This document shows, one piece after another, positions 9,129 to 28,591 of a stretch of DNA of 64,000 nucleotides. Made by a program: the position numbers and the translations under genes. The stretch comes from a virus. Its lineage: Duplodnaviria; Caudoviricetes. The stretch lies in IMG/VR virus record IMGVR_UViG_3300043786_001845, positions 290-64,289 of that record; one strand, 5' to 3'. The notes under the pieces were generated by a model. That model saw only the letters and a list, made by a program, of their open reading frames with translations, searched no databases and had not been told where the DNA came from. Every line of letters begins with the position of its first letter. Positions within the stretch are counted from its first letter, which is position 1.

Positions 9129-9604
9129 GCGCTGCTCTCGACATCCCGGCGCTGACGGCGATGCTGTTCGCTGCTCTCGACATCCCGGCGCTGACGGCGA
9201 TGCTGTTCGGGGTCCTCCTCCTTGCCGTGTTGATAAAGTGGCACGTCGACGAGACTCCGTTCGACATACGCCACGTGCTCATCGACATCGAGACGGGGAG
9301 GGTCAGCCTGCACAAGTTCGGCCAGTTCCTGGCCCTGTTCACTTCCACCGGGCTCCTCTGGTACGAGGCGGTCAACGGCCGCCTCAGCGAGTGGCTGTTC
9401 GGCGGCTACATGGTGGCATGGGCCGGAGTGGCCCTCGGGAACTCATGGCTGAAGAACCAGAAGGGGTCTTCTTCCCCTGACTGGGAGGCGGGCAGGAGCA
9501 CGGAGCGGCGAGAAGCTGAGCGCCGACAGATGGCGGCAGAGGATTGGGAAGCCGACAGCGAGAATGCCCCGCAGCGGAGGCATTCCAGAAACGAGGAGGA
9601 CTGA
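9125..9604 (+). CDS. Putative holin
   Basis: About three hydrophobic segments and a charged C-terminal tail; ATGA overlap with the endolysin stop; lies between lysin and spanin. Confidence 0.65.
   Translation: MSAALDIPALTAMLFAALDIPALTAMLFGVLLLAVLIKWHVDETPFDIRHVLIDIETGRVSLHKFGQFLALFTSTGLLWYEAVNGRLSEWLFGGYMVAWAGVALGNSWLKNQKGSSSPDWEAGRSTERREAERRQMAAEDWEADSENAPQRRHSRNEED
9130..9208 (+). repeat. Perfect 39-bp tandem duplication (AALDIPALTAMLF x2)
   Basis: Read directly from the sequence. Confidence 0.9.
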
Positions 9605-9607
9605 AAG

Positions 9608-10168
9608 ATGGTACCATTACTGGCAGCGGGCGCGATCAGCAAGCTCTCAATCGGCCGGAAGTTGCTGATCGCAACGGTGATCGCGCTTGTCGCACTGGCG
9701 ATGATCGGCACTGCCTGCTATTTCGTGTGGCAGGCCGGGGCCGACTCGGTGCGCATCAAGTGGGAGGAGGAGAGGACCCGGGAGGCCGCGGAGGCCGCGC
9801 GTCGCAAGGGGGAGGCTGGCAAGGTCACCCTCAAGGAAGTCACCAAGTACGTCGACCGAATGCGCACCGTCTACAAGAGCGGCGACACCATCATCAAGGA
9901 GATTCCAGTCTATGTCACCAAGCAGAATGATGCTCGTTGCACTGTCAACGATGGCTTTGTCAGCGTGTGGAACTTGTCCAACCAAGGTGAGCTTCCCGGC
10001 CCCCCCGGCCCAGCTGATGCAGCCCCCTCCGCCGTTGTCCTCTCAGATATTGCGACCCAGCACACCAGAGAGTCGACCCAGTGCAGAGCGGTAGAAGCCC
10101 AGCTCATCGCCCTCGAGGCCTGGATAACCAAGCAGTGCGCGATCCACGACTGCTACGCCTCTGAGTGA
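9608..10168 (+). CDS. Rz-like inner-membrane spanin
   Basis: N-terminal TM helix, coiled coil, TKYVDR...IIKEIPVYV...C.V..GFV pattern; position after holin and lysin. Confidence 0.8.
   Translation: MVPLLAAGAISKLSIGRKLLIATVIALVALAMIGTACYFVWQAGADSVRIKWEEERTREAAEAARRKGEAGKVTLKEVTKYVDRMRTVYKSGDTIIKEIPVYVTKQNDARCTVNDGFVSVWNLSNQGELPGPPGPADAAPSAVVLSDIATQHTRESTQCRAVEAQLIALEAWITKQCAIHDCYASE
9927..10094 (+). CDS. Rz1-like outer-membrane lipoprotein spanin embedded in Rz (+1 frame)
   Basis: MMLVALSTMALSA-C lipobox followed by a Pro-rich mature part (PAPPAQLMQPPPPL); fully nested in Rz. Confidence 0.8.
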   Translation: MMLVALSTMALSACGTCPTKVSFPAPPAQLMQPPPPLSSQILRPSTPESRPSAER

Positions 10169-10174
10169 TCGGAC

Positions 10175-10204
10175 GCCCCATCCCCGCTTGGGGGTGGGGC
10201 TTTC
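10175..10204. terminator. Intrinsic terminator between convergent genes
   Basis: GCCCCATCCCC-gctt-GGGGGTGGGGC hairpin followed by TTT. Confidence 0.6.
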
Positions 10205-10208
10205 CAGC

Positions 10209-11486
10209 TCAGTACAGGGGCGACGGCGTGGGCGCCCGGGTGGTGCGCCGGTCCTTCACCGCCTTCCACTCGGTCAAGTCACAGTAGACGCCGAGGTGGT
10301 ACTCGTAGTTGTAATACAGCCCGGGCGGGAAGATGGTGAGTTCCCACGTCAGCGGGTCGAAATTCCACTGGTCGTCCGGAACCTCGACACCGCCGCGCCA
10401 CAAGATGGCCGCGACAGAGTCGGGATCGGCCCCGAGCGCGTGGGCGGTCACAAACTCCTTCAGGTCGTCCGGCAGGAAGCTGCCGAGGGCGGTCACGTCC
10501 GGTGCCGGGGTCTCCCCCACGGCGGCCGGGCGGGCACCCGACAGGAGCGCGGTGTGGTAGGCCAGCCCAAGGCGGTCCCGGATGACGGACGGAGCCCGGA
10601 GGACCACCGTGTTGGTGAAGTAGACGGAGCTCCCCGCGATCCCGAAATCGGGCGCCACGGGCTCCGGGAGCAAGGCCCGCTTCTGCTGGTACGCGTACGC
10701 CACGGGGATCTCCAGGTCGGCAGTCATCGAGAAGTCCACCTGGGCTGAGCGCACCACGTTCCCATCACGATTCACCGAGATGGACGGGGCGTCGATCACG
10801 AGGATCGGGTTGCAGAAGTACCCGAAGCTGAAGGCGGTGCGCCCTGACGCAGAATTGATGGTGCGGCGCACGTCTCCGGCCGTGACGGCGCTGAGGTACT
10901 CCTGGAAGCGATCGGAGTCGGTCGGGTCAGAGCCGTCGCCGAGCCCCATGTCGGCCCACACCTGGCGGAGGATGTCGGTCGGGATCTCCGTGTAGATCAC
11001 GACGTCGTTCAGGAAGACCTTGTAGTTCGTCGGCATCGCGCGCCGGAGATACATCAGGACCTCCCGCGCCTTGAGGTCGGTCTCGACCACGAGGGAGACG
11101 GCGAAGCGCACCACGATTCGATCCGACTGGTAGCCGGCGTACCGCAGATGGTTGTCGTCGTGGATGAGTCTCGCGAGCCTGTCCGGCTGGAGGAGGAAAC
11201 GGTTCCCGGTGTGCCAGCTGACCCCGGTGGCGAAGTCTGACACGTCGGCGGTCGGTTCCATTCGGACGGACAGCAGCGGGAGGCGCCGGGTGGCGAGTTG
11301 GCTAGAAGAGAACGGGCGAAAGTGGCGCCGCCGCCGCAGCATCGGCAGCTCCGAGTCGACCGAGTAATCGTGCAGGTAGCCGGCCGGCATGAGGCCCTCG
11401 ATGTACCCCCGCGTCGCGCCGAGCAGGCTGCTCAGCATCGGAGTTACGGATGACACCGGGCGCGAAGTCAGAAGATCGCTCAGCAT
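10209..11486 (-). CDS. Late protein, probably virion (neck/tail-completion-like)
   Basis: 425 aa with GAGG RBS and an upstream late-promoter motif; function inferred from context only. Confidence 0.55.
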   Translation of the reverse strand: MLSDLLTSRPVSSVTPMLSSLLGATRGYIEGLMPAGYLHDYSVDSELPMLRRRRHFRPFSSSQLATRRLPLLSVRMEPTADVSDFATGVSWHTGNRFLLQPDRLARLIHDDNHLRYAGYQSDRIVVRFAVSLVVETDLKAREVLMYLRRAMPTNYKVFLNDVVIYTEIPTDILRQVWADMGLGDGSDPTDSDRFQEYLSAVTAGDVRRTINSASGRTAFSFGYFCNPILVIDAPSISVNRDGNVVRSAQVDFSMTADLEIPVAYAYQQKRALLPEPVAPDFGIAGSSVYFTNTVVLRAPSVIRDRLGLAYHTALLSGARPAAVGETPAPDVTALGSFLPDDLKEFVTAHALGADPDSVAAILWRGGVEVPDDQWNFDPLTWELTIFPPGLYYNYEYHLGVYCDLTEWKAVKDRRTTRAPTPSPLY

Positions 11487-11510
11487 TTAATTTCCTCAAG
11501 TCTCATTTCT

Positions 11511-11522
11511 TATTAGGCTGTT
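11511..11522 (-). promoter_or_regulatory. Late promoter motif AACA-GCCTAA-TA
   Basis: Motif ~25 bp upstream of ATG 11486. Confidence 0.65.
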
Positions 11523-11523
11523 C

Positions 11524-11556
11524 AAAAAAAAAAGGAGAGGGTACACCCTCTCCTTT
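11524..11556 (-). terminator. Intrinsic terminator closing the Ubl-system operon
   Basis: AAAGGAGAGGG-loop-CCCTCTCCTTT hairpin followed by a long U tract on the minus strand. Confidence 0.8.
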
Positions 11557-11578
11557 CTCACTGCTGCCGTCCGAAGCG

Positions 11579-12253
11579 CTACCGGCCGAAGAGCTCGTGC
11601 TGAGACGAGTCGTCCCCGGCATACACGTCGCCGAGGTCGCTGCTTTCAACCATTCGGAGGCCGAGCTCGTTCAGCGGGCGCCCGCCGTTCTTCCGCTTCT
11701 GAGATGCGAACCGGAGAGGATTAGGCGACAGGACAGGCTGGAGTTCCTGCAGACGCGTCTCGACCGCCCTGCGAAGCGCGTCGCTCGGCTCCAGAATGCC
11801 ACCGTGCACGACGACCCTGGCGGGGGCCTGAAGCTTCGATCCGACAACCAGCGGCACGTTCACGACCGCGGACGGGAACTCCCACGGCGGAATGAACAGG
11901 ATGGAAGCCAGGAACTCCTCGTTGATGCTGTTCCGGTCGACCGTGCTGAACTGGCGGTAGTTCTCGGGGTGTCGGTGCATGATGACGTTCCACTCCGGGC
12001 TCGGAGGGGGCTCGGTGAACTGGATGCTCGTGGAGGTCGTCGTCTGGAACGGAAAGTACACCTCACCGGGCGCGATCGTGACGGTCGCGGCGGCGGCGTC
12101 CCAGGTCCCCTTCAGGTAGACCCCATACTCCAGGGACGGCGACGGGAGCGCGGGCTGGATGGACAGCATCGTGCGGGCCACATCCGCCGGGATTATCACC
12201 GTTGCTGCATGGTGGATAGCCAGCCCGGTGCTAATGAGATGGGGGTTGACCAT
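11579..12253 (-). CDS. JAB/MPN+ (JAMM) metallo-isopeptidase
   Basis: N-terminal catalytic E (LEYGVYL) and exact H-x-H-x7-S-x2-D motif (HRHPENYRQFSTVD). Confidence 0.85.
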   Translation of the reverse strand: MVNPHLISTGLAIHHAATVIIPADVARTMLSIQPALPSPSLEYGVYLKGTWDAAAATVTIAPGEVYFPFQTTTSTSIQFTEPPPSPEWNVIMHRHPENYRQFSTVDRNSINEEFLASILFIPPWEFPSAVVNVPLVVGSKLQAPARVVVHGGILEPSDALRRAVETRLQELQPVLSPNPLRFASQKRKNGGRPLNELGLRMVESSDLGDVYAGDDSSQHELFGR

Positions 12254-12254
12254 C

Positions 12255-13001
12255 TCAGGCCCCGGCAGCAGTGAGCTGCGGCGTGACCTTGTACTTGCCG
12301 CCGTTCACAAAGTCGGCCAGACCGACCAGCCGCCCGGACCGGTCCGAGATCAGCATCTTGCTGAGATTGAGCTCGCGCAGCTTGAGCATGAACTTGTCAG
12401 TGGCTTCACCGATGGTAGCCCCGCTGAATTGGTAGTACTGGTTGTAGATCGTGGCATCGAACCCCACCACGCCAGGCTTGCCGGCCGGAGTGGCATTGGG
12501 AACGGCGGTCGCGGGGGCGGCGGTCGCGGGGGCGGCGGTCGCGGGGGCGGCGGTCTTGTCAGTCGCACCGCCACCGATGGCGCCGGAGGCAACGGCAGTC
12601 TCGCCGATGGCGCCGGAGGCAACGGCAGTCTCGTCGGGCTTGCTCCCGGCCCCGCTCATTTCTCGCGTGGCGTCGAGCATAGAGGGGGCGGCGTTGACCA
12701 GGCCGGATGACGAGTCGACCTTGGGCGTCGTGCTCGGCTTCGGGACGACGGTGCCGTCCGAGCGCCACGCAGCGGCCTCAGGCGTGAGCTCGGAGGCCGC
12801 GAGTTCCCGGGGACATCCGCCCGAGCGCCCGCCCACCCGCATCTCCACGGTGAGGTGCTTCTTGAGGCGGTCGCTGCGGAGCTTCACACCGATGGCGGTC
12901 CAGTCGGTGTCCAGCTTCTGCATCACATCGTCGTTGGTGAGCTTCGCGTCGTTGTAAGCGGTGAGAAATTCACTATCAGTAATCTGGCTGGCACCACGCA
13001 T
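12255..13001 (-). CDS. Candidate ubiquitin-like modifier: helical N-domain, low-complexity linker, ~70-aa beta-grasp-like C-domain ending TAAGA
   Basis: C-terminal beta-beta-alpha-beta-beta-like pattern ending KYKVTPQLTAAG-A; A/T/P-rich repeat linker; lies between E1 and JAB. The fold is inferred. Confidence 0.6.
   Translation of the reverse strand: MRGASQITDSEFLTAYNDAKLTNDDVMQKLDTDWTAIGVKLRSDRLKKHLTVEMRVGGRSGGCPRELAASELTPEAAAWRSDGTVVPKPSTTPKVDSSSGLVNAAPSMLDATREMSGAGSKPDETAVASGAIGETAVASGAIGGGATDKTAAPATAAPATAAPATAVPNATPAGKPGVVGFDATIYNQYYQFSGATIGEATDKFMLKLRELNLSKMLISDRSGRLVGLADFVNGGKYKVTPQLTAAGA
12505..12634. repeat. Tandem repeats in the linker: 15-bp x3 (TAAPA) and ~30-bp x2 (ETAVASGAIG)
   Basis: Read directly from the sequence. 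Confidence 0.85.
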
Positions 13002-13016
13002 GCCTCTTCTCCTAAA

Positions 13017-13694
13017 TCAAGTTTCAAAACCCCGGAAGAATATCCGGAGCATATTGAGTTCGGCGGCCGAGACATCAACTCCGAGCCGCACGTTGGACAT
13101 CAGGTCCCGCACTGTAATAACGTCGCCGATCATGCTCGGCCCATCCTCCGAGCTGAGCGAATTGAGCAGCTCAGCGTTTGCGAACAGAATCCACGCGCCC
13201 CGCGAGGCGCGTATTGCGATCTCCAAACGGTCCAGCAGCTTTCTCTGGACCAGCAGCTTTCTCTGGATTTCATACGCGACATCGAAGACTATCGTCCATT
13301 CGACGAATTCGATCTCCTCCGAGCCAGTCTGCGTCTGAACTCTTTCCACGGTGCCGAGCATGAGTGACTGGGAGTATGAAGCCTGTCTGACGCAGTACCC
13401 GGCTACAGCCAGCTCCGCCACGAACTGCTGAAGGTCGTCGACGCAGAGCCCGGTGACCTCCTCGGCGGCGTACCGCTCGTCCAAAGTGAGTGCTGCGACG
13501 ATGCCGATATTGCAGGTGAATTTAGTGAGTTCTCGAAACGACTCACTGCTGCGCTTCGTGGACGACACCGCCGTTGCGTAGAGCTCGCGGAGCCGCTCGA
13601 GGCAGGCTGCCGGTCCGGCGTCCGCCAGGGTCATGGCCTCGTCGTATGCGGCCTTGTTGCGCTCGAAGATCTCGTCCGTAATGGTGTTAAGCAT
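13017..13694 (-). CDS. Hypothetical protein of the Ubl operon
   Basis: 225 aa; TAATG overlap with the E1 stop; contains an 18-bp tandem duplication (QRKLL x2) near 13232-13267. Confidence 0.7.
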   Translation of the reverse strand: MLNTITDEIFERNKAAYDEAMTLADAGPAACLERLRELYATAVSSTKRSSESFRELTKFTCNIGIVAALTLDERYAAEEVTGLCVDDLQQFVAELAVAGYCVRQASYSQSLMLGTVERVQTQTGSEEIEFVEWTIVFDVAYEIQRKLLVQRKLLDRLEIAIRASRGAWILFANAELLNSLSSEDGPSMIGDVITVRDLMSNVRLGVDVSAAELNMLRIFFRGFET

Positions 13695-14413
13695 TATTCG
13701 TCCTCCTCACCGTCTGGAGACCAGGCGAACGAGACCGAGCGCGCGAGCTCGTCGATGTCCGTGGTGTAGGTCCCCGCACGATGCTCCGTGATGTCTGCGA
13801 AGTTCCGGAACTCGAGAAAGCGGATCGCCATCAGGGCCAGAATGGCGGCCGGAACGTAGAAGCTGGGGGTCACGGCGTAGGAGTTGCCGCCCTGTAGGAC
13901 GACGACCTTCTTGGCCACGATGTCCGGCCGGAAGGTGAAGCTCATCGCGGACCCGCCGTCGTAGGCGAGCTTTAGCCACGTCCCCGGAATCATGCAGCTG
14001 GGGTCGATGGTGTCGCGGGCGTCGATGATGGTCCCGGTGGTCAGCTTCGTCTCGGGTCCGACCCGCTCGGTCGAAGCATCGGCGAGAGCTCGGGTGGCGT
14101 CGTTTCCGCCGTTGGTGATGGTGGCGAGCGCCTCCCTGATCGCGTTCACCTTCTCAGTGCGCCCGACCGCGTCGAGCCTGAACAGCTGGGTGCGGTTGAG
14201 ATTGTGCAGCTCGACCGTGTCGTGGTCGTACACGCGGAACATCATGCGCTCGTACATGGAATTGTACGTTCTCGTCCGTGCCGCGAACCTGAGGACATTC
14301 GAGCCGACGCCGCCCGCACCGAGCAGATTGATCCGGTGGCGCATCTTGCCGCCGCCGATTCGCTGCCTCGCGAGGTTCCGCACGTCCTCTCTGCTGATAT
14401 CAGGCATTCTCAT
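13694..14413 (-). CDS. ThiF/MoeB/E1-family adenylating enzyme
   Basis: LLGAGGVGS, YDHDTVELHNLNRT, K-V and IIDARD motifs; no CxxC zinc motifs and a single Cys. Confidence 0.9.
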   Translation of the reverse strand: MRMPDISREDVRNLARQRIGGGKMRHRINLLGAGGVGSNVLRFAARTRTYNSMYERMMFRVYDHDTVELHNLNRTQLFRLDAVGRTEKVNAIREALATITNGGNDATRALADASTERVGPETKLTTGTIIDARDTIDPSCMIPGTWLKLAYDGGSAMSFTFRPDIVAKKVVVLQGGNSYAVTPSFYVPAAILALMAIRFLEFRNFADITEHRAGTYTTDIDELARSVSFAWSPDGEEDE

Positions 14414-16127
14414 TCATCCTTCTGTCTAGTTCGGCGAAGCTGGCTGCGGTTATCGCGCCCAGCTCCCGCAGGCCGGGGACCGTCACCTCAGGATTCTGCT
14501 TCCCAAAGTCCCTCCAATCATCATCGGAAATCATCCCAGGATGTTCCAGCACGAAGCCCCTCTCGGAATTGTATGCGCTGTCCAGATTGCACTGGCGGAG
14601 CATCTGGATGAACTCCTCGAGGGTGGCGTGGCGAAATCCGCCGCGCGATTGCACCTCCATGTCCGACATCGTTCTATTGATGTCTCCGAGGCACACAGCC
14701 CCGCTCGACGAGATGTTGGTGTGTTTGGCCGAGATCGTACACTTCTTGTCGCTGTACGCCTGCGCGCTCGGGAAGCTGGTATTGTTCTTGGCGAACTTCA
14801 AGTCGAACGCGTGGATCCCTAGCTCGTGGTGCAGCGTCCCGGGAATGTCCTCGATGTAGGTGCGCCCGCGGCGGACGACCGTGACCGGTCGGACGAACTC
14901 CCTCAACACCACGCGCAAGACCGCCGCGCTGATCGAGGTCACGCTCTCCACAAACGGGTGGTCGGTCATTTCCTCCTTGAAGAACTTCGCGAGGTTGGCG
15001 GTGTTGACCTCGATCCTCGCGTAGCCGTTGACGTACCTCACGAAGTTCGAAGCCATATTTCCGAGCTCGGGTCTTGCCAGCCAGCCCAGCAGAGACTTCG
15101 CCCAGTCTGTGTGGGTGATGGTGACGCCGAATCCATTTGATGCCATCTCCGGAATGTGCGCGAGCAGCGTTTCCCATTGGGCGAGGTCGTTGATAGACCA
15201 GGTGCCGCACTGGGAGAGAATGAAATCAAGCGTGACGCCGCTCTCGCGTATGCGCTCCCGCAGCTCTCCTAGCGGATCAGCCCTGTTCGCGATGTTCAGC
15301 GTCTTGATGGTGGTGTTGTTGGACTGGAATTTATCGAAGAGGCGACAGATGGCATTGTGCGCGGTCGGAAGACTACTCGCGTCCATATCGTACTTTCGCC
15401 ATGTTATCTGCCCGGAGCGGTCGACGTAGGCGAGCCGCGTCTCCCCAGCCCGCCACTCGACGCGCTCGAGGCGCCCGAGGATCGGGTCGGAGATTCCCCA
15501 CTCCGCGACCATGGCGCCGGTGTGGGAGAGCTCGCAGTATCGGAACCGCGGCGACGGGATTCCGAGAATGCCGCAAGCCGCCGCCAGGTCCAGAGAATTC
15601 ACCAGTATTTCCTGGCCGGCATGGAACCAGTTGATCAAGTCGTCCACGTTGCTCCGCGGCGGGGTGCCCCAGCTCCAGATGAACCTGAAGGCGTCGCCGG
15701 GGTTGAGTGCGTCCAGGTCCTGCACCAGCTCGTAGCTGCATGAAGCCAGGAAAATCACTGCGAATCGGAGATCGTCCGACATCATCCACGAGTCGTAGGG
15801 GAATGACACCATGCGCCGTGGGCGATCGAACGACGGACCGGTGACCAGAATCATGTTCCACGTTGTGTGGCGATTGGAGAAGCGCGTCTCGCCTTCCCCC
15901 GCTCTGACGATGATCTGCGAGACGGCGACCCTCTCGGTCCCGCCCGGTGGAATGCAGTGCATGTCCATCCAGGACACGTCGATGGCGATCTCGGAAGGCT
16001 GCTGCTCGCGGTGACGAGCGAGCACTTCGTCGTACTTCCCCCTCACGACGGAGGAGGGAACCACGGTCGGCCTGAAGGAATGACCGGGGTAGCGGCTCTC
16101 CGGCATCCGCGCTGGGAGGCTTCTCAT
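14400..16127 (-). CDS. Large protein with C-terminal prokaryotic E2/UBC-like domain
   Basis: HTNISSSGAVCLG (14687-14723) matches the E2 HPN(I/V)xxxGx(I/V)CL active-site signature. 575 aa from MRSLPARM; ATGA-coupled upstream and overlapping E1 downstream. Confidence 0.75.
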   Translation of the reverse strand: MRSLPARMPESRYPGHSFRPTVVPSSVVRGKYDEVLARHREQQPSEIAIDVSWMDMHCIPPGGTERVAVSQIIVRAGEGETRFSNRHTTWNMILVTGPSFDRPRRMVSFPYDSWMMSDDLRFAVIFLASCSYELVQDLDALNPGDAFRFIWSWGTPPRSNVDDLINWFHAGQEILVNSLDLAAACGILGIPSPRFRYCELSHTGAMVAEWGISDPILGRLERVEWRAGETRLAYVDRSGQITWRKYDMDASSLPTAHNAICRLFDKFQSNNTTIKTLNIANRADPLGELRERIRESGVTLDFILSQCGTWSINDLAQWETLLAHIPEMASNGFGVTITHTDWAKSLLGWLARPELGNMASNFVRYVNGYARIEVNTANLAKFFKEEMTDHPFVESVTSISAAVLRVVLREFVRPVTVVRRGRTYIEDIPGTLHHELGIHAFDLKFAKNNTSFPSAQAYSDKKCTISAKHTNISSSGAVCLGDINRTMSDMEVQSRGGFRHATLEEFIQMLRQCNLDSAYNSERGFVLEHPGMISDDDWRDFGKQNPEVTVPGLRELGAITAASFAELDRRMNENA

Positions 16128-16837
16128 GACGCTGCCCCTGCTGTCGGGACCGAGCTCTCCCACCTGGCCCGCAGCTGGAAGTTGTTGAACGCCTCGGCCA
16201 CCAGCTGGTCGGCGAAGTCGCCGGTGAATAGCAAACTGTCCTCCACGAAGGACTCCGGCTTGCACAGCATGTTCACGGAGAGCAGCACGATCAGCTGCCT
16301 GAGTATCTCAGCCGAGACGATGTCCTTCCAGTGCGGCTGGTCCCAGACCGCCTCCGCGGCGGAGACCGCGTCGCGGAGCATCTGAGACGGGCGGGACGTC
16401 TTCCCGACGAGCCCGCTCTCCACGTCCACCGCGATGCACCACTCGTCCTCCCCCCAGGGAGGAGTCACCAGGGGGCCGTCCTCTCCCCGCAGGTAGAGAC
16501 CGCGGCCGGCCAGGACGCTGTCCGCATTCGCCCTCATGAAGTTCTCGTCACACACGATCGCCGTGAAGTAGGGCCGCGTTTCACGACAGACGCGGATGAA
16601 GTTGCCGAAATAGGTGATGGCGCTCTGGAGGGCCGAACGCTCGTTCTCTGGATCAGAAAGCGAGCGGAGCACGACGGAGATGCCGCGCACGCCGACCGTG
16701 GCGATGGCCTCCGCCATGTCGACCAGAAACGAATTGTCGAGTGACTTGACACTCTCGAACGAGACGAACATGGTCACCCACTCCGGGATGACGAGCCCCG
16801 GTGGATGCCTCCCAAAGAGTCCTACTTGTTGCGACAT
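16124..16837 (-). CDS. Hypothetical protein, first gene of the Ubl operon
   Basis: GGAGG RBS before MSQQVG; ATGA overlap with the E2 gene. Confidence 0.7.
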   Translation of the reverse strand: MSQQVGLFGRHPPGLVIPEWVTMFVSFESVKSLDNSFLVDMAEAIATVGVRGISVVLRSLSDPENERSALQSAITYFGNFIRVCRETRPYFTAIVCDENFMRANADSVLAGRGLYLRGEDGPLVTPPWGEDEWCIAVDVESGLVGKTSRPSQMLRDAVSAAEAVWDQPHWKDIVSAEILRQLIVLLSVNMLCKPESFVEDSLLFTGDFADQLVAEAFNNFQLRARWESSVPTAGAAS

Positions 16838-16894
16838 GTGAGGTTTCCTCCAATACAGACCCGTTTCCGAACTGGAAACGGGCGCTATCACAGA

Positions 16895-16904
16895 GATAAT
16901 ATAA
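16895..16904 (-). promoter_or_regulatory. Possible early promoter (TATATTAT) of the Ubl operon
   Basis: AT-rich TTTATATTATCT ~60 bp upstream of ATG 16837; resembles the TATATTA(C/T) early motifs recalled for phiKZ/AR9. Confidence 0.35.
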
Positions 16905-16906
16905 AG

Positions 16907-17749
16907 CTAAGTCGGAGCTTTGAATTGGGACCGCTCGACGATGTTCTGGAGCCACCGCCACTGGGGGTCCGTCGGAGAGAGGTGGCCGTCCTTCTTCAGC
17001 TTGTCGACCATCTGCTGCACGAAGTCCCCTTCCTTGCTACCACTCTTTGCCACGAGGACAGCCTGCCCGAGGACCGCTCGGACCTCCGCCTGGTCTCGCT
17101 CGCCCTCCGTAGGCGGCAGGACTGGGGGCTGAGGGGTTACGCCGAGGGCGCGGAGCGCGAAGAAGACCGTCGCGCAGGCGCGCACGTCAGCCAGGGCGTC
17201 ATGCGCGCCGGAGAAGTCACTCCCGGCGAGATGGCGGTGGGCCTCGGTCAGGGTGGGCCTCTTGTACCCGCTCCCCCCGTTCACCTTGGGAAGCCGGCAG
17301 ACCTCCACGGAGGAGACCATCGTGTCATAAGCCGGGAGCTCGAGGAAGTAGTCAGCGGCTGCCTTTTGTCCGAGCTCGAGGAACATCCGCCGCAGGACGC
17401 GGATGTCGAATCCGAGATTGTGTCCGACGAGGACGCACCCCTTGCTCGCCCCGACGGCGAGTAGCAGCTCTCGTACCTTGTCGGGTGCGATGCCCCGGGC
17501 GCGGTGCTCTCGGGAGATGCCGTGTATCCCAGCCGACTCCGTCGTGACGTCCGGCCAGCCAGGGAGCGGGGCGACGATCGCCGACGCGGCGGTGATCTCC
17601 CGGCCGCGCTCGTCGTAAGTCGCGAACGCCACCTGGATGGGGCGGGGCTGACGCGGGTCCGTCTCGGCGGCGCCGGAGACCCAGAGCCGGTCGGTCTCCG
17701 TGTCGGCAAAGAGGTACTTCATTGGGACTTCTGCTGTTGGTTGGGTCAT
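16907..17749 (-). CDS. DEDDh 3'-5' exonuclease (DnaQ-like)
   Basis: ADTET (ExoI), GHNLGFD (ExoII), YDTM, AHDALADV (ExoIII). Confidence 0.92.
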   Translation of the reverse strand: MTQPTAEVPMKYLFADTETDRLWVSGAAETDPRQPRPIQVAFATYDERGREITAASAIVAPLPGWPDVTTESAGIHGISREHRARGIAPDKVRELLLAVGASKGCVLVGHNLGFDIRVLRRMFLELGQKAAADYFLELPAYDTMVSSVEVCRLPKVNGGSGYKRPTLTEAHRHLAGSDFSGAHDALADVRACATVFFALRALGVTPQPPVLPPTEGERDQAEVRAVLGQAVLVAKSGSKEGDFVQQMVDKLKKDGHLSPTDPQWRWLQNIVERSQFKAPT

Positions 17750-17758
17750 GTGACTCTC

Positions 17759-18261
17759 TCAGGTGATTTTTCGGAGGCGGAGCGGGCGCTGACCAGAGCC
17801 GCTGTGCCGGTGGAACACGAACTCCCCGATCCGGGCGGTCCGCTTCATCTTGCCCGCCCAGCCGGGTGGCCCCTTGTAGTCGAGCTTCTTGCGCAGCTTC
17901 GGGGTCCAGAAGTGGGTGGCGCCCCCGGTGGGGTCCGGGATGCGACCCGCGTAGACCAAGGCACCAAAGGCCTGGATGCGGCGGTGTTCGTGGGCATCCT
18001 TCTTCTTCGGGGCGCTGGCGTGCTGGGGGGAAATTGCCCCTTCTGGTGCGTGACGGCGCAGACCGTCCGCGGGTAGACCGGGCTCCTGGTCCGGTTCATG
18101 ATGGCGTACATGACCGCGGCAACCTCCGCCATGGGCCGCCCCCGCGCCTCAATCCAGGCGGCCCTGGTGAGGCACCCGAGCTCAGACTTGGACGCCTGCG
18201 CGCATTGTGAAACGACGATGCCGATCAGCATCGCGACGATCATCTTTGTGTGCTTTTTCAT
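17759..18261 (-). pseudogene. SleB/Hydrolase_2-family cell-wall hydrolase with a 1-nt frameshift
   Basis: Signal peptide, CL..A.W.EARG, V...IMNR...YP.TVC.V..Q.GQF in one frame; DPTGGATHF..P.W....ARIGEFVF in the -1 frame; junction at or near the C6 run at 18025-18030. Confidence 0.8.
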
Positions 18262-19858: not shown

Positions 19859-20791
19859 TCACGGAGTTTTACGACGACCAATTTTCTTTCCGGCAGCCCT
19901 GCCGAAATACAGTGTAGTGATGTCTGGACGGTATGTGCAGTTCTTGAACTTGCAGAATATCGTGCGCCAACCGAGACGCAGCCCGTTTTCCTGGATGATG
20001 TCCAAGTAGGCTTTTCCGTCTCGTATCTCGGTACAGATCTTGTGGATCTGGGCGTCGGTCAAGCGCTGATTGGAGGTCGGCCTGAGACCCAGCTTGACCG
20101 CGTGCTGCAAATTTTCCGCAGCGGTTACCCATTCGAGATTCGAAGCGGCGTTGTTGGTCTTGACGCCGTCGATGTGGTTGACCTGCAAGTTCGGCTCGTA
20201 GTCCTCGCCCTTGAACACCTTGGCGAGGACGATGTGCAGCGTGTAGTTGACGCCGCCCACCTCGAAGCGGATGTAGCCGTTCACGGTGGCCGGCGACCTG
20301 AGCTGCAGCAGACGCTGGAACTTCAGGTTGCGCACGCGGCCGCTGGAGCTGAACTCGTAGTTCGCGAAGATCCTCGCTTCCTCGGGGAACAGGAGCGGGT
20401 CGAACCGTCTCCACTCCTCCAGGTCGCACTGCTCCGCGTCCTGCTCGCCCAGGCCCTCGTCGACGTACTTGCGAGTCTTCGACAGGCCGAGCTTGCTCAG
20501 GATCGAGTAGAGCTTCGTCGCCCTGTCGACACCCAGCTCTCGCGCGAGCTCCTTGACATTGCTGCCGTCGTAGTTGTCGCGCAGGAACTGGCAACGCTCC
20601 TCCGTCCAGAAGCGCTCGCGCCCCGTGCCGCGGCCCTGCACCAGGCCCAGCTCGGAGCACTTCCGGGTGACGACCTTGCGGTCGACCCCCAGCGCGTCAG
20701 CGAGCTCCTGGCGGCTCATGCTGTCGTGGTTGGCGACCAGGAAGTCCACATTGTCCTTCGTCCATTTCACTGCTAACTGTAAATCGGGCAT
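19859..20791 (-). CDS. Intron-encoded HNH homing endonuclease
   Basis: HIVLAKVF...VNHIDGVKTNNAASNLEWVT..EN..HA (HNH_3 type), NUMOD4-like FSSSGRVRN, two N-terminal WT..E..FL..N HTH-like repeats. Confidence 0.9.
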   Translation of the reverse strand: MPDLQLAVKWTKDNVDFLVANHDSMSRQELADALGVDRKVVTRKCSELGLVQGRGTGRERFWTEERCQFLRDNYDGSNVKELARELGVDRATKLYSILSKLGLSKTRKYVDEGLGEQDAEQCDLEEWRRFDPLLFPEEARIFANYEFSSSGRVRNLKFQRLLQLRSPATVNGYIRFEVGGVNYTLHIVLAKVFKGEDYEPNLQVNHIDGVKTNNAASNLEWVTAAENLQHAVKLGLRPTSNQRLTDAQIHKICTEIRDGKAYLDIIQENGLRLGWRTIFCKFKNCTYRPDITTLYFGRAAGKKIGRRKTP

Positions 20792-20817: not shown

Positions 20818-20829
20818 CAATCGAATGTT
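20818..20829 (-). promoter_or_regulatory. Late promoter motif inside the intron (AACA-TTCGAT-TG), upstream of the HNH gene
   Basis: Motif ~27 bp upstream of the HNH ATG. Confidence 0.55.
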
Positions 20830-20855
20830 AGTGCTTGAGGCTTGAAAGTTCGGGA

Positions 20856-21958
20856 ATCGTCGGGTTCCGATTCAATAAACACGGCAGGCCGCCGCTCTCG
20901 CTGCGCTTGATCATTTCCTTCATGGCCTGGTACACGGATCGGTCGAACTTCGTCTGAGCGCGACTCCACACCGCGTTGGCCTCCCGCACGTCCACGCCGC
21001 GCAGCCGGCTGATCAGATTCGTCAGCTGGAAGCGATACAGCTCCAGGAACGCCAGGTATGGAATCTCGACCTCGTCCTGCTCGTGGCCCGGACGCAGCGG
21101 GACGATGACGCAGCGAGACGAGAAGTTCACGCGGACGCCGAGGAGGCTGCTGCGCAGGTAACCACCCTTCCCGGAGAGGACGTGAAGGACGTGCTCGAAG
21201 ACCTCGTTGGCCCGCTCCTGGATACGCCAGAGGACGCTGTTGATGTTCGCCTCGGTGCGCTCCGCGTCGCTGTACTCGTCGAGAGCCTGGACATTCGCCA
21301 CCAGTAGGTTGAAGACGTTGTTGACCTCGTCGAAGATCAGCTGGCGGTCGACCACCAGGGCCGGCCTCAGGATGTGGCTGAACACCGGGATCTTGCTGGT
21401 GAGGAGCTTGTCGGCGTTCTCGCGGATGAGGGTGGCGTACTCGGAGACCCGTGGGTCCTGGCGGCCGCGCTTCTGCTCGTAGTGGTCGAGGACCTCTTCC
21501 CATCGCTGCTCGAAGCCGAGGATGCCGATTCCGTCGTACGGCCCGGCTGACTCGTCCTCGCGGGTGAGACCGTCCACCGTGAGGATCTTCTTCTGGTGGA
21601 GGATGCGGATCAGCTGGGAGGGGCCGACGACCTTGCCGACGTAGGTGAAGAACAGCGGGCTGAGGATCTTGTAACCGCCGAGGTCGACCCAGCCTCGCTT
21701 GCTGAACACGGTGTCGCGGCAGGTGACGACGGTGTCGCACTTCTGGCACGTCGTGCCCTCGTGGAATCGGCCCTCGACGGCGCCGCACTCGCACGCGTAT
21801 TCCCGTCCCGAGCTGGGCATCCTCCCGAAGATCCGCTCGCTGAAGACGCCACCGTCCGAGAACTTCCCGCTCCTCTCGACGACTGGCGTGGGGTCGTCGA
21901 CGACCCCGTCCTCTCGGAACCCATCATCCAAATTGATCAGACTCACAAACACTTCCAT
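20856..21958 (-). CDS. RNA polymerase beta' N-terminal (catalytic) subunit, exon 1; spliced product 465 aa, probably non-virion RNAP
   Basis: GVFSERIFG, Zn ribbon CECG...CQKC, GWVDL, KGGYLRSSLLGVRVNFSSRCVI, LLNRNPT. Confidence 0.9.
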
Positions 21959-24960: not shown

Positions 24961-24994
24961 AGCAGGAACGGGTGCGCCCGTTCCTGCTTTTTTT
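24961..24994 (+). terminator. Intrinsic terminator
   Basis: AGCAGGAACGGG-tgcg-CCCGTTCCTGCT followed by a T run. Confidence 0.85.
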
Positions 24995-26744
24995 ATTTGA
25001 GCTTATAGACGTAGCGCAGCTGCCCGCAGTCCCAGAGGCGCGCGTACCCGAGTGCCTGGGCCATCTGCCACTCGGTCATGGACGCGTCGAAGCTCGGCTC
25101 CATGGCGAGCAGCTTGTGCCGCTGCAGGCTGGAGCGGTGGAGGCGCTTGTTCGAGTCGTTCTTGTGCACGTAGTCGTAGGAGACCTTCGTCTGCCTCTCC
25201 AGCCGGAAACCGACGAGCTCGTAGCCTCGGCTGCCCCGGAGGGGGGTCCACCGGAGATCCGCGTACGTTACTAATTCCTCGTGGTCGGAGAGGTCGTACG
25301 AGCGCCGGAAAGCCGCGATGATGCGCCCCAGCGCGCCCCGGACGACGCTGCCGCCGACGGTGCAGAAGCGCAGCAGCTCGAGCTGCCGCCCGGCCGAGCC
25401 GCCGGTGATCGCCCTCTCCCCGAAGGTCGCCAGGGCCAGCAGGAGGCCGTCGTCTCCACGGAGACCGACTGCCGCCTCGAGGAGGGGGATGCTCCCCTGG
25501 AGGTGGTTCGCGTCCAGGAAGGCGCGGGCCTCGCGAGCTGGGACGAAGGCGTCGACGGTCGTCTTCCTGGCGTCGAAGACCGCCAGCGGACGGCAGAGAA
25601 TGGCGCGCAGGCGGGACTCCACCGTGGAGCGCCGACCCGCCCACTCGTCGGAGTAGACTCGGATCAGCTGGACGCCCAGGTCAGCCAGCCGCCGCGTCTT
25701 CTCCAGGGCAGCCCCCGGGCGGGCGGCCTCCCTCCCGCTGAACCACCGCTCCCTCGAGCGGCCCTCCGAGTGCCACCAGACGCCGTCGAAATCTATCGCC
25801 ACCCCCCTCTCGGGAATGTACATGTCGACCTTGACCCTCGGGCTCTCCGGCATGAGCCCGGGGAAGTCGGATTGGACCCCGGGCGCGAGACCTCGGACGA
25901 AGTCGAGCAGCTGCAGCTGCCCGCGGGACGCCCGTCCCAGGCGCGCGCACGCCGGGCAGCGCACGCCGCCCTCGTCCCTCTGGAAGTTGTCCGGCCTGGC
26001 ACGCCACTCGGTCCCGCAGGTCTTGTGCCGGTGGAGCACGGGAGTCTTCCCGGTCCTGTACGGCTCGAGCAACTCGTACTCGCCGAGGGACCGCACGAAG
26101 GCCGCGTAGGGCTCGCCGTACCTCTGGCACGCGCACTGCCTCGACGCGGTGGAGCCCTCGTCGAAGGTCTCCCGCACGCGCACCCAGGTCACGCTCTTCG
26201 TCTCGCCGCACGACGTGCACGCGAACGAGATGGTAGTCTTCTCGGAGGCGGCGGTGGCTTTCCAGGTGGTGCCGCGCTCGTAGGCGGCCACGACGTCGCC
26301 GATGACGTGGTCCTGGGGATTGCCCGAGCAGGATGGGCAGCGCTGCCCTCCCCGCAGATTGGACGGCGACACCCTGAACATCCGGTCGGCGTGCGCCGCG
26401 CAGCGGAAGACCACCGGCTCGAAGAGGCCGCGGTACTCGCTCTCGATCTCGTATCCCAGTTCGGCGCAGAGCGCCTCGAGCCGCGCCCGGCCGGCGTCGC
26501 GGTTCTTGTCGGCGGTCCTCCGGGCGGCACACGCCGGGCAGCCGCTTTTCTTTTTGTCGTTTCTGACCACGCTGTGGATTTCCGTCTGCCACGTGGAGTC
26601 GCAGTGGAGGCACCGGAAACTGGCGAGCGTCCGGATGGTCGCCCCGTCCAGGTGCGAGGGGGACACGCGGACGAAGTGCCCCTCGAGGCACGCGGCCTCT
26701 AGGCGCATCGGCAGCGGGCGCGGATCTTTCGTGCTTGTTTTCAT
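24993..26744 (-). CDS. Free-standing homing-endonuclease-like protein (multiple Zn ribbons, Vsr/PD-(D/E)XK-like domain, C-terminal Hef-like domain)
   Basis: Repeated CxxC/CPxC units; VDMYIP..VAIDFDGVWWHS; FLDANHLQG, ELLRFC, TYADLRW, RLWDCGQ. Confidence 0.8.
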   Translation of the reverse strand: MKTSTKDPRPLPMRLEAACLEGHFVRVSPSHLDGATIRTLASFRCLHCDSTWQTEIHSVVRNDKKKSGCPACAARRTADKNRDAGRARLEALCAELGYEIESEYRGLFEPVVFRCAAHADRMFRVSPSNLRGGQRCPSCSGNPQDHVIGDVVAAYERGTTWKATAASEKTTISFACTSCGETKSVTWVRVRETFDEGSTASRQCACQRYGEPYAAFVRSLGEYELLEPYRTGKTPVLHRHKTCGTEWRARPDNFQRDEGGVRCPACARLGRASRGQLQLLDFVRGLAPGVQSDFPGLMPESPRVKVDMYIPERGVAIDFDGVWWHSEGRSRERWFSGREAARPGAALEKTRRLADLGVQLIRVYSDEWAGRRSTVESRLRAILCRPLAVFDARKTTVDAFVPAREARAFLDANHLQGSIPLLEAAVGLRGDDGLLLALATFGERAITGGSAGRQLELLRFCTVGGSVVRGALGRIIAAFRRSYDLSDHEELVTYADLRWTPLRGSRGYELVGFRLERQTKVSYDYVHKNDSNKRLHRSSLQRHKLLAMEPSFDASMTEWQMAQALGYARLWDCGQLRYVYKLK

Positions 26745-26829: not shown

Positions 26830-28098
26830 TTACCGCAGCTCGCGCGTGTACTTCGCAAAGTCAATTTTTGCATGCTTTAGCGAGGTGTCGTGGAATGCCT
26901 TCAAACTTGCGTTCAACAGCACAGTTCCCACTCGGCTCGCCACCAGCCCGATGTTGGTTATGCCCATGCGGTAATGGAGCGTGCCGGCGCACCTCGAGCA
27001 GATGCCCTTCTTCGACCCGCAGAACAGCGGACTGCGGAGCTGCAGGGTCTTCCCCTTGATCGTCCCCGCCGACTCCGCCGTGATCTCGACGAGCTTCCCC
27101 CCCTCCTTGTAGAATCGGTACAGGTACTCGCGCGGCTCGTCCACCTCGACCCGCAGCGTGAGCGGCGTCCTGCAGTCCGACTCCGGGTCCGGGTCGAGCT
27201 GGAGGCCCTGGAACGCGGCGTTCAGCTGCTTTGCGATGTAGCCGCCCTGGGCGGTCATCATGGAGCGGCCGTACGACGCCTGGACGATGAGGTCGGCGTA
27301 CGCCGGAATCTCCCTCTGCGGAATCCCCTCCTCCAGCGACGCCGTCGAGACCGTGATCTTCGACGGGTCGTCGGACTTGCGCATCGCGCCGCGCATCAGC
27401 GCCGTCGACTTGAAGTTGTTGCCGAGGGACCCCCTGGCCCCAGACGCGAAGATGTCGTACCCGGGGTCCTTCCCGTCGAGCTCCTTCGTCGACACCGCGA
27501 TCAGCTCCTTCTCGGCGGCCGCCAGCTCCTTCAAGTCGCCGCCGCGGATCCGGTCCCCGCGCTCTCCGGAGAGGATCTCCTTCTTGAGCCTCCGCGCGGC
27601 CGCGGGCGCCCGGATGGTGTCGATGGTCATGGACGGGGCCAGGAACGAGGTCGGGGCGTAGCCGAGCCACTGCATCCGGTCGATCGCCCACGCCATGTCC
27701 TCGTGATCGATCTTGCCGTCGAGGCGCGCGTCGACGAGCTGCTGCTCGATTTTCTTGATCGTCTTGCCGTCCCACGGCTGGTCGTGGTACGGAATCGCGG
27801 AGCGGAGAGCCCTGGACCTGGAGAAGATCAGATTGTTGGCCAGGAATCGGCCGACGGTCGTGCTCCTCACGGACTCCCATCCCGGAGACCAGCGGACGTC
27901 CCACTCCCCAGTCCCGCGGTTGCCGGGCGGGGGGCTGCGGAAGTCGGCCGGGATGTCGAGGATGGCCTGGGGGTCGTACTTGGACGAGCCCTTCCGCGTG
28001 GCGGCCAGCCACGAGCGGAGCAGCGAGAGCGTGTAGTCGCCGGGCTGGACGCGCACCAGCTCGGCGGCATCCGCGGCCTGGGTGATCTTGCGTTCCAT
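26830..28098 (-). CDS. RNA polymerase beta' C-terminal subunit, probably virion RNAP
   Basis: SGARG, bridge helix TAQGGYIAKQL, DCRT, LRSPLFC...ICSRCAG, trigger-loop-like LLNASLKAFH; lies downstream of a late motif. Confidence 0.88.
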   Translation of the reverse strand: MERKITQAADAAELVRVQPGDYTLSLLRSWLAATRKGSSKYDPQAILDIPADFRSPPPGNRGTGEWDVRWSPGWESVRSTTVGRFLANNLIFSRSRALRSAIPYHDQPWDGKTIKKIEQQLVDARLDGKIDHEDMAWAIDRMQWLGYAPTSFLAPSMTIDTIRAPAAARRLKKEILSGERGDRIRGGDLKELAAAEKELIAVSTKELDGKDPGYDIFASGARGSLGNNFKSTALMRGAMRKSDDPSKITVSTASLEEGIPQREIPAYADLIVQASYGRSMMTAQGGYIAKQLNAAFQGLQLDPDPESDCRTPLTLRVEVDEPREYLYRFYKEGGKLVEITAESAGTIKGKTLQLRSPLFCGSKKGICSRCAGTLHYRMGITNIGLVASRVGTVLLNASLKAFHDTSLKHAKIDFAKYTRELR

Positions 28099-28099
28099 C

Positions 28100-28591
28100 T
28101 CAGGCCTCCGAGGCGCGGAATCCGGCCTCGCCGAGCAGTTTCGCGAGCTCGGCGCGCCCATTGGATGCCGTTCCGCCCAGGTACCGCAGCCGCACCTTCA
28201 GGCAGCCGTCCTCGGATGCGAACGAGCACGCGCCGTCCGGTGCCTCGCCGGAGAAGGCGGCCCGCGCGGCGTCCGCGTCTGGGCTGGCAGCCGGGGCCGT
28301 TATCTCGGCGTCCGCGATTGCCCTGCGGAGCGCCCACTCCCGCCCGCCGGCGCCCTCGTCGTGGTCCGCGTCGACCAGCCTGGCCGCGCAGGCGTCCTTT
28401 CCGTCCCACCCACCTGCCCGCAGCGCCGCGGGCAGTCGCCCGAGAAGCGCCGCGAGCCTGGCTGGCCCGTCGACGCGGCCGGCCGCGGCCCGCAGGCGCT
28501 CACCGACCTCGGCGCTGGCGGTGAAGCCAGCGGTGGAGTGGGAGTGCTCCCAAAGGCCGAGCTCAAGCATCAATTCAATTTCGTCACTCAT
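28100..28591 (-). CDS. Hypothetical protein
   Basis: Starts MSDEIELM after AGGAG and a late-promoter motif. Confidence 0.55.
   Translation of the reverse strand: MSDEIELMLELGLWEHSHSTAGFTASAEVGERLRAAAGRVDGPARLAALLGRLPAALRAGGWDGKDACAARLVDADHDEGAGGREWALRRAIADAEITAPAASPDADAARAAFSGEAPDGACSFASEDGCLKVRLRYLGGTASNGRAELAKLLGEAGFRASEA

Follow-up and report, generated by a model that had tools for sequence, protein, structure and literature searches.

A tyrosine-loop E1-like enzyme lacking a conserved cysteine is encoded beside a cysteine-bearing E2-like protein in a predicted ubiquitin-like conjugation module of jumbo phages

How could an activating enzyme (E1) pass on a ubiquitin-like protein (Ubl) if its family has no cysteine at the position where a thioester would be expected to form? 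The question is raised by a gene at 13694-14413 on the minus strand of the window, by which we mean the whole 64,000-nucleotide stretch analysed here (positions 290 to 64,289 of the Caudoviricetes record IMGVR_UViG_3300043786_001845, which is 64,289 bp long and has an estimated completeness of 25%). To our knowledge, the thioester relay through an E1 cysteine was long held to be universal. We propose, with a probability of roughly 0.45, that the encoded E1-like protein adenylates the Ubl, that Tyr179 in its crossover loop then carries the Ubl as an oxyester, and that the cysteine of an E2-like partner encoded upstream takes it over as a thioester. This proposal draws on sequence conservation and on analogy with the bacterial Bub pathway. 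The features of the gene are as follows; counts out of 59 refer to alignment A1, described below.

13694-14413, minus strand: E1-like adenylating enzyme, 239 aa, of a cysteine-less family with a tyrosine loop (open reading frame (ORF), Pfam ThiF match and AlphaFold2 model)
14303-14320, minus strand: GxGGxG nucleotide-binding loop, residues 32-37 (GAGGVG), with G32, G34, G35 and G37 invariant in 59/59
14012-14023, minus strand: DARD motif, residues 131-134, the E1 Mg-binding Asp plus a clade-specific invariant Arg, with D131, R133 and D134 invariant in 59/59
13994-13996, minus strand: codon of C140, the sole cysteine, unconserved (Cys in 1/59, Lys in 41/59)
13859-13930, minus strand: crossover loop, residues 162-185, RPDIVAKKVVVLQGGNSYAVTPSF, holding Y179 (codon 13877-13879) and P183-S184 (AlphaFold2 model and alignment)

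Relatives were collected with a word-indexed search, in which 72 of 1003 candidates passed E<=0.001, and with an exhaustive search through 1.84 billion proteins, which yielded 94 family representatives (19 with E<=1e-30). The typical length is 200-260 aa. Alignment A1 (n=59) combines the window E1 with 58 of the 72 word-search matches; it leaves out P0001 (the window E1 itself), the six weakest matches (P0067-P0072), and a group of entries whose sequence or contig is too short (P0017, P0037, P0038, P0046, P0050, P0054 and P0063). A second alignment, A7, was made deliberately diverse, with 17 sequences at 22-49% identity to the window E1, and takes in loci from low-G+C phage contigs as well as 339-729-aa forms with an additional N-terminal domain. 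Throughout A1, residues G32, G34, G35, G37, N39, D65, N71, R74, K88, D131, R133, D134, K148, Y151, G153, P163 and Y179 were invariant; residues 62-74 of the window protein read YDHDTVELHNLNR, and K88 is present. The initial annotation of this gene had described the adenylation motifs as intact, and the conservation of the glycines, D65, N71, R74, K88, D131 and D134 in 59/59 bears this out, with the caveat that an arginine finger at the N-terminus is not clearly conserved (R25 in 46/59, R8 in 33/59). This caveat, and a Pfam match confined to the N-terminal third of the protein, would suit a catalytically dead scaffold; the complete invariance of the nucleotide- and Mg-binding residues is unexpected for a dead enzyme, and we regard such a scaffold as very improbable.

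The fold tells the same story of superfamily membership. Pfam ThiF (PF00899) scored 47.4 bits against a cut-off of 28.1, over residues 26-104 only, and NCBIfam and PADLOC gave sub-threshold ThiF, MoeB or E1-E2 matches in the same N-terminal part. The AlphaFold2 model, built from 59 sequences (pLDDT 89.6, pTM 0.87), had 213 Foldseek matches at E<=0.001, the top one being UBA5 (1.6e-8), and VIA aligned it to UBA6 with a Z of 17.2 (rmsd 3.3, 187 residues aligned). A fold search independent of Foldseek returned Z values of 15.9 for MoeB, 15.9 for SAE1, 15.8 for ThiF, 15.4 for AclA (21% identity), 15.3 for MccB, 14.7 for BilD, 14.6 for both Cap2 and PaaA, and 14.3 for BubCD. Because these values are effectively tied, the fold says E1 and does not tell the types apart. 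The family profile matched UBA6, UBA5, MccB, ThiF and MoeB at E values from 3e-11 to 1e-6, and hhalign against the canonical MoeZ-like P0140 gave a probability of 97.5% for a match that runs through DARD to residue 159 and then ends. Both the superfamily residues and the adenylation-domain fold of E1/ThiF proteins were thus found in the window protein, which we predict to be the activating enzyme of a ubiquitin-like conjugation module in a jumbo-phage family. Membership of the PRTRC group was considered and rejected because PRTRC_ThiF reached at most 25.9 bits in 26 distant or long relatives and 18.9 bits in the window E1, far under its cut-off of 144.75; in the NCBIfam scan of those 26 relatives, the other matches were generic ThiF/MoeB models below threshold.

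The absence of a catalytic cysteine is a property of the whole family and not a chance feature of one sequence, as judged from its alignments. The paired CxxC motifs, whose lack in the window protein the initial annotation had pointed out, are absent from all 59 sequences of A1, and in a wider set a CxxC occurred in one of the 74 proteins listed (P0117). The best cysteine column in A1 reached at most 21/59, no sequence had a cysteine within residues 162-185 (0/59), and four of the 59 had no cysteine at all. A canonical thioester E1 carries a conserved cysteine in its crossover loop or in an inserted domain; here the loop spans 24 residues with no such cysteine, and there is no inserted domain. 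MoeB and ThiF enzymes have two CxxC zinc motifs, and ThiF a loop cysteine, and the two CxxC pairs that mark MoeB/ThiF/UBA5-type enzymes were likewise not found in the window E1 family. The initial annotation had correctly placed the only cysteine of the protein, in IDPSCMI, just after DARD, and had offered it as a possible relocated nucleophile. C140 does lie six residues past D134 and is the sole cysteine of the window E1, where it would form the E1~Ubl thioester. No other sequence in A1 has Cys at position 140 (1/59; Lys in 41/59), and some relatives are cysteine-free, which led us to reject this idea; we give it a negligible chance.

The family does conserve a tyrosine in the loop. Residues 175-186 (GGNSYAVTPSFY) contain two tyrosines, Y179, which is invariant (59/59), and Y186, which is Tyr in 49/59 and Phe in 8/59; P183, S184 and F185 are each found in 58/59. 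In the diverse A7, Y179, P183 and S184 are invariant beside the adenylation residues. A Y-x3-[PT]-[ST] pattern downstream of DxRD was present in 135 of the 146 E1 relatives collected, and the other 11 comprise seven fragments or frameshifts, two proteins with Y-x2-PS, and two canonical ThiF/MoeZ-type enzymes. In the E1 model, strands at 147-151 and 156-161 are followed by a short helix (163-167), a loop, and a helix at 186-200, and the block 171-180 has a mean pLDDT of 65 while neighbouring blocks exceed 90. From the positions of the strands and helices and from this low-confidence block we assign residues 162-185 to the E1 crossover loop. Counted by hand, Y179 lies nine residues ahead of P188, and the loop cysteine of P0140 lies eight residues ahead of the matching helix-opening proline (...C-S-R-G-G-V-L-G-P...). 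Y179 would therefore sit about where ThiF/MoeB-type enzymes carry their loop cysteine, within one residue, by hand count and not by alignment. The earlier suggestion that a tyrosine stands where the cysteine is expected holds to that precision for Y179, with the refinement that Y186, the other tyrosine of the segment, is not invariant. R133 (within DxxD), K148 and Y151 are clade-specific invariant polar residues unlike those of canonical E1s, and H70 is present in 54/59; as a matter of speculation, these four may form a hydroxyl-activating environment.

Y179 is not the only conserved hydroxyl in this region. S184, located at the N-terminus of the post-loop helix, is conserved to the same degree (58/59 in A1, invariant in A7) and could in principle form a serine oxyester, the type of bond used by the Bub E2 according to the Bub preprint. 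Its position behind P183 and just before helix 186-200 is a typical structural capping place, it should be less mobile than the loop, and by hand count it is farther from the cysteine-equivalent position; we consider S184, or any other hydroxyl nucleophile besides Y179, quite improbable.

A tyrosine in the proposed role has one precedent, in the E1s BubCD (type I) and BubBD (type II) of the bacterial ubiquitination-like pathway Bub ('6E'/DUF6527; PDB 9ea5; bioRxiv 10.1101/2024.11.21.623953). As described in that preprint, the crossover loop of BubCD (347-377) has no cysteine and Y370 as its sole invariant residue, the corresponding BubBD residue is Y342, and changing the tyrosine to phenylalanine abolished conjugation both in vitro and in cells; a Ubl~Tyr oxyester was proposed for the E1 (bioRxiv 10.1101/2024.11.21.623953). 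The same source gives a serine as the nucleophile of the Bub E2, with His/Asp or Lys/His beside it, forming a Ser oxyester. Among the three options that the initial annotation had listed for this gene, a Ser/Tyr ester now fits best, given that Y179, P183 and S184 are invariant in A7; the relocated cysteine falls away, and direct hand-over to the E2 cysteine stays as a rival. Its description of the chemistry as non-canonical was right, although, with Bub, such chemistry is no longer without precedent.

The E2-like protein is encoded directly upstream of the E1, and its features are these:

14400-16127, minus strand: E2-like protein (P0147), 575 aa from the database gene-call start; the longest ORF reaches 16265
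14538-15017, minus strand: UBC-like domain, residues 371-530 of the 575-aa form (AlphaFold2 model, Foldseek and VIA)
14691-14723, minus strand: HTNISSSGAVC, an HxN...Cys motif as in the active site of E2s (translation; H469, N471 and C479 invariant in 26/26)

We take HPN...Cys to be a signature of E2 enzymes, and the E2-like protein carries it: across 26 homologues the motif reads H-[TP]-N-I-x(4-6)-G-x-V-C-L-G, with H469, N471 and C479 in 26/26. The AlphaFold2 model of the protein had a mean pLDDT of 65.6, with about 70-84 in the UBC-like part. All Foldseek matches listed for it (50 ranks, 48 rows) were UBC/E2 chains, at E values of 0.011-0.13, and VIA aligned residues 371-530 with whole E2 cores at Z values of 5.0-6.4 over about 120 of about 150 residues; its rows include a few UEV, RWD-type or Mediator chains. 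A profile of the E2-like family run against PDB sequences, and a Pfam scan of the 26 members, gave chance-level rows only. An invariant motif and a weak but consistent fold match together suggest that the partner is a UBC/E2 protein with an HPN-type motif followed by a catalytic cysteine.

The cysteine of the partner opens another route, in which there would be no covalent E1 intermediate: the E2-like cysteine would attack the acyl-adenylate directly, and Y179 and S184 would hold the Ala-Ala tail of the Ubl or gate the active site. In MoeB-type enzymes the reaction ends with the adenylate, and the attacking nucleophile comes from outside; the crossover loop of an E1 also clamps the Ubl tail, so that conservation of a loop residue does not by itself imply a nucleophilic role. 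The invariant HxN...C motif of the partner (26/26) would fit such a transfer, as would the gene arrangement: the E2-like stop overlaps the E1 start by 14 nt, and the end of the E2-like gene meets the E1 start in loci L018-L020, which suggests co-translation and a complex. We are not aware of any E1-E2 pair reported to work without the E1 intermediate. Cap2 and BilD, whose E2 partners have a cysteine, keep their E1 cysteine. An invariant tyrosine in a mobile loop, near the place of the catalytic cysteine, moreover repeats the pattern of Bub, for which the preprint reports that the Y-to-F change kills activity. Sequence data fit either route; we prefer the tyrosine oxyester and regard direct transfer as its main rival, with the lower probability of the two.

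The rest of the module lies downstream of the E1 gene:

13017-13694, minus strand: 225-aa protein between the E1 and Ubl genes, of no recognisable family
12255-13001, minus strand: 248-aa protein made up of a conserved N-terminal domain, predicted helical, a linker of low complexity and a candidate ubiquitin-like domain at the C-terminus (alignments)
12258-12482, minus strand: candidate Ubl (beta-grasp) domain, residues 174-248, ending ...KVTPQLTAA-GA (translation and ESM Atlas model)
11579-12253, minus strand: predicted JAB/JAMM metalloprotease, 224 aa, with E42, H93, H95, S103 and D106 invariant in 9/9 homologues
11936-11977, minus strand: HRHPENYRQFSTVD, JAMM motif H-x-H-x7-S-x2-D (translation)

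The order on the minus strand is thus E2-like protein, E1, 225-aa protein, Ubl protein and JAMM protease, and it is kept in the 259-kb viral contig L001 and in the metagenome contigs L006, L007 and L009. In more distant loci, an HPN...C ORF lies directly upstream of the E1 in seven of nine (L016 begins at the E1, and ORF picking did not resolve the spot in L017), and a JAMM-motif ORF lies downstream in six of the nine, that is, in all with enough downstream sequence. Pfam, NCBIfam and PADLOC found nothing in the E2-like, 225-aa, Ubl and JAB proteins (Pfam at E<=0.01); the downstream protein is assigned to the JAMM/JAB metalloproteases by its E...HxH-x7-S-x2-D motif and is probably one of them. 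The ESM Atlas model of residues 174-248 of the 248-aa protein resembles the beta-grasp clusters DUF2604/YukD, PB1, UN_NPL4 and Ufm1, with TM scores of 0.52-0.59 over 65-73 residues. A complex prediction with two E1 copies and the Ubl domain (residues 172-246) gave ipSAE values of 0.00 and 0.03 against a mark of 0.32 and carries no weight either way.

The end of the Ubl protein is distinctive. A QLTAA tail is kept in five of six aligned sequences and is followed by 0-2 residues or by an extension, giving an alanine end and not the usual glycine: the proteins end ...KQLTAA in L001 and L006, and ...QLTAAGA in the window, while P0174 continues with a tail after ...QLTAARP and L009 with a long extension after ...QLTAAG. 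Matching ORFs in distant loci end ...GAAK, ...GAAC, ...GASV or ...SAAN. In the proposed mechanism, the JAMM protease would trim the short tail after ...QLTAA, and the E1 with ATP would adenylate the exposed C-terminal alanine. The hydroxyl of Y179 would then attack the acyl-adenylate to give a Ubl~Tyr oxyester (an aryl ester), as proposed for the Bub E1, and the loop would swing to the bound E2, whose cysteine would take the acyl group as a thioester and pass it to a lysine (amine) of a phage or host target. The N-terminal domain (residues 1-60) of the 248-aa protein is better conserved than the beta-grasp part, with invariants that include R2, G3, A4, D9, E11, F12, L13, Y16, N17, W34, K40, R42 and H49; by eye it is helical, with an R-x-G-G-like end, and it has no family match. 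This domain may be the functional cargo that is conjugated.

Conjugation itself might be questioned, since ThiF-fold enzymes that work without a cysteine are among the fold matches (MccB, Z 15.3; AclA, 15.4; PaaA, 14.6), and the E1 could adenylate a C-terminus for thiocarboxylation of a sulfur carrier, as ThiF and MoeB do, or for peptide modification, as in MccB, PaaA and AclA. The constant neighbours of the phage gene are E2-like, beta-grasp and JAMM proteins; rhodanese, sulfurtransferase and peptide-maturation families were found in none of ten neighbours scanned with Pfam and NCBIfam; and the carrier ends Ala-Ala, not Gly-Gly. We therefore consider a role outside conjugation unlikely.

Since Bub provides the analogy, we asked how close the two systems are. 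Bub loci were fetched through PF20137 (DUF6527) from 401 genomes of one bacterial phylum, and ten regions were cut out. DUF6527 was present in 18 of the 401 genomes, in 16 of them over the cut-off, so the Bub pathway seems fairly common in that phylum; E1-like ORFs were found in eight of the ten regions. Five proteins of 392-400 aa share invariant S110, K112, R224 and Y345, and we call them BubBD homologues because S110, R224 and Y345 closely match the S106, R219 and Y342 given in the preprint. As a side observation, type II Bub-like E2-E1 fusions adjoin DUF6527 genes in L054, L055, L056, L062 and L063. Like the Bub E1 as described there, the phage E1 has a cysteine-free crossover loop with an invariant tyrosine a few residues before the loop end (Y370 in 347-377; Y179 in 162-185). 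A hand count based on the following helix puts the tyrosine of the BubBD homologues 20 residues ahead of the Arg in 'VIRF', and Y179 19 residues ahead of R198 in 'AIRF', on an anchoring HMM match that is not significant (score -1.8). Both operons also appear to combine a Ubl, an E2 and JAMM-type peptidase activity. The differences are at least as clear. The phage E2 keeps HxN...Cys whereas the Bub E2 uses a serine (S110, with K112, in the BubBD homologues); no match to BubE (DUF6527/PF20137) was found among ten proteins scanned between 10209 and 18949 (Pfam E<=0.01); and the phage E1 is a stand-alone protein of 239 aa, whereas Bub E1s are fused to a JAB domain (type I) or an E2 (type II). The phage operon thus lacks three hallmarks of Bub: the serine E2, the BubE protease and the fused E1. 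Furthermore, sequence similarity is confined to the Rossmann part, the phage carrier ends Ala-Ala whereas BubA is described as ending in Gly (G229), and the phage module is virus-encoded whereas Bub occurs on bacterial mobile elements or in defence loci. On these comparisons, the phage E1 appears to resemble the Bub E1 in look and placement and is not demonstrably of the same family.

Bub is the nearest precedent; other known systems compare as follows. MoeB and ThiF (PDB 1jw9, 1zud) match the phage E1 in size, in fold (Z 15.9 and 15.8, respectively) and in their nucleotide and Mg motifs, but their carriers end Gly-Gly and their genes lie among those for cofactor synthesis, neither of which holds for the phage module. 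Type II CBASS Cap2/Cap3 (PDB 7tsq, 7to3) resembles the phage module in having a similarly sized E1 adenylation domain (Z 14.6), a cysteine E2 and a JAB peptidase, and in conjugating a whole protein, not a free small Ubl, via its C-terminus; it differs in that Cap2 is an E2-E1 fusion, the substrate is a CD-NTase, and the context is bacterial defence. The Bil system (BilD/BilB/BilA/BilC, PDB 8tyz) shares separate genes for E1, E2, Ubl and JAB and a JAB protein that pre-processes the Ubl C-terminus (Z 14.7 for the E1), whereas the phage E1 is a single-domain protein with no conserved cysteine. Among longer relatives, P0092, P0099, P0108, P0109, P0112, P0144 and P0146 (418-734 aa) carry a C-terminal domain with DCRD...Y-x3-PS behind a long N-terminal region that opens with YxRQ, and P0090 (593 aa) and P0095 (483 aa) have a long N-terminal region that lacks YxRQ; an HxN..C motif was found in none of these nine proteins. 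The YxRQ-type relatives hint at adenylation domains arranged in tandem, inactive plus active, as in BilD, but with the tyrosine loop.

Several observations weigh against the tyrosine relay. Some cysteine lies within 25 residues upstream of the tyrosine in 16 of the 135 motif-bearing proteins, at varying, unconserved places that are mostly in the preceding strand. No PDB chain matched a profile of the E1 C-terminal half (17 sequences) at E<=10, and a search with the single-sequence C-terminal half gave two chance rows only (E 0.7-0.9); as this half finds no solved chain, the equivalence of the tyrosine is based on residues counted by hand from the next helix. The kinship with Bub is thin at the decisive place: hhalign of A1 against the five BubBD homologues (A9) covered only 73 Rossmann columns, at a probability of 93%, and did not reach the crossover loop; BubCD matched the phage profile over the Rossmann part only, at E 1.2e-5, far below UBA6; and the BubCD Z of 14.3 ranks 16th among the E1 folds. 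The precedent itself rests on Y-to-F loss of function and a predicted pose, and the sole BubA-BubCD band observed persisted in Y370F (bioRxiv 10.1101/2024.11.21.623953). Within the module, the E2 fold match is weak (Z at most 6.4, no Foldseek match at E<=0.001), the Ubl fold comes from an Atlas model with a whole-protein pLDDT of 0.57, and S184 matches Y179 in conservation. Finally, a covalent E1 intermediate would not be visible from sequence, and if the cysteine-bearing E2 can reach the adenylate, an E1 nucleophile would be unneeded.

The family is small and is found in viral and metagenomic sequence. On viral contigs of 135-259 kb, five loci were confirmed from 45 pattern stretches, and on metagenome contigs 29 were confirmed from 241. 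Pattern-dependent scans of one genome per prokaryote species (185,579 bacterial and archaeal) gave no full-length relatives: the first confirmed 0 of 14 pattern stretches, and the second confirmed five of 126, all of which covered residues of about 24-102 and correspond to generic ThiF. GenBank phages had no DNA match to positions 10000-18000 (megablast) and no protein match to the E1 (tblastn, E<=1e-3), and the module is not known from any phage in culture. Among the BFVD viral structures, there were nine matches at E<=0.001, all with 12-17% identity and none a close E1 relative; they include the crAss001 'thiamine biosynthesis protein' and a phage protein named PRTRC_ThiF. Neither a phage E1/E2/JAB module nor a tyrosine E1 outside Bub was described in the literature searched, which included term look-ups in the jumbo-phage overviews PMC7824862 and PMC13282480, and the Bub preprint supplement (544 operons) may list relatives. 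What appears new is a tyrosine-loop, cysteine-less E1 paired with a cysteine E2 and borne by jumbo phages; tyrosine E1 chemistry as such is already known from one recent precedent, Bub.

Bub provided one exception to the cysteine relay, with hydroxyl nucleophiles on both E1 and E2. The phage family keeps the cysteine on its E2 and not on its E1, which separates the two steps. Nature thus offers a test case: can an ordinary E2 cysteine be loaded from a tyrosyl ester, or can an E2 take the Ubl straight from the adenylate? Tentatively, and at clearly less than even odds, we suggest that jumbo phages encode a complete Ubl machine of their own with a hybrid relay, from adenylate to E1 tyrosine oxyester to E2 cysteine thioester to lysine, which would attach a 25-kDa protein (helical N-terminal domain plus beta-grasp, with a C-terminal alanine) to phage or host proteins during infection. 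If so, the module would be either a viral counterpart of the bacterial defence pathways Bil, CBASS and Bub or a means of countering them, and the tyrosine loop would have arisen outside Bub too, either independently or as part of an old, wider E1 clade. It would also be a complete E1-E2-Ubl-protease set in a bacterial virus, the characterised prokaryotic systems being host defences, and its targets could bring to light a new means by which large phages reshape proteins of the host or the virion.

Pfam, NCBIfam, PHROG and PADLOC gave no match for the 225-aa protein, whose gene lies between those of the E1 and the Ubl protein. A gene also occupies this position in related loci, with a weak blastp match in L006 only; its Atlas model was poor (pLDDT 0.36), and a search with that model gave only low-TM helical repeats. 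The module is flanked by a 425-aa protein (10209-11486), which is the only one of the module neighbours with a PHROG name (phrog_21946, a family of unknown function), and by a 255-aa protein (16124-16891). Both flanking proteins are found at the same places in L001, with 45% and 30% identity respectively, and could be part of the module, perhaps in the role of target or adaptor.

The window has a G+C content of 63%. Besides the module it carries split multisubunit RNA-polymerase beta-type genes, a spanin-like gene and genes for virion proteins, for an endolysin and for a GroEL-like chaperonin, the make-up of a jumbo phage with a genome of around 250 kb. The phage-encoded GroEL-like chaperonin (43411-45225) is 604 aa long and matched phrog_5725 at E 2.4e-81. 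HNH/homing-endonuclease genes at 19859-20791 and 24993-26744 adjoin the split RNA-polymerase beta-type genes (20828-21958 and 26830-28161), as is typical of mobile endonucleases that have settled in essential genes of phages. Also seen were four perfect tandem duplications, all in frame within coding regions, at 9130-9209 (39 bp x2.1), 12503-12555 (15 bp x3.5), 12574-12633 (30 bp x2.0) and 13232-13267 (18 bp x2.0). The repeated peptides belong to a small plus-strand ORF, to the Ubl-protein linker and to the 225-aa protein, and four exact short duplications inside 4 kb suggest either recent slippage or an assembly feature.

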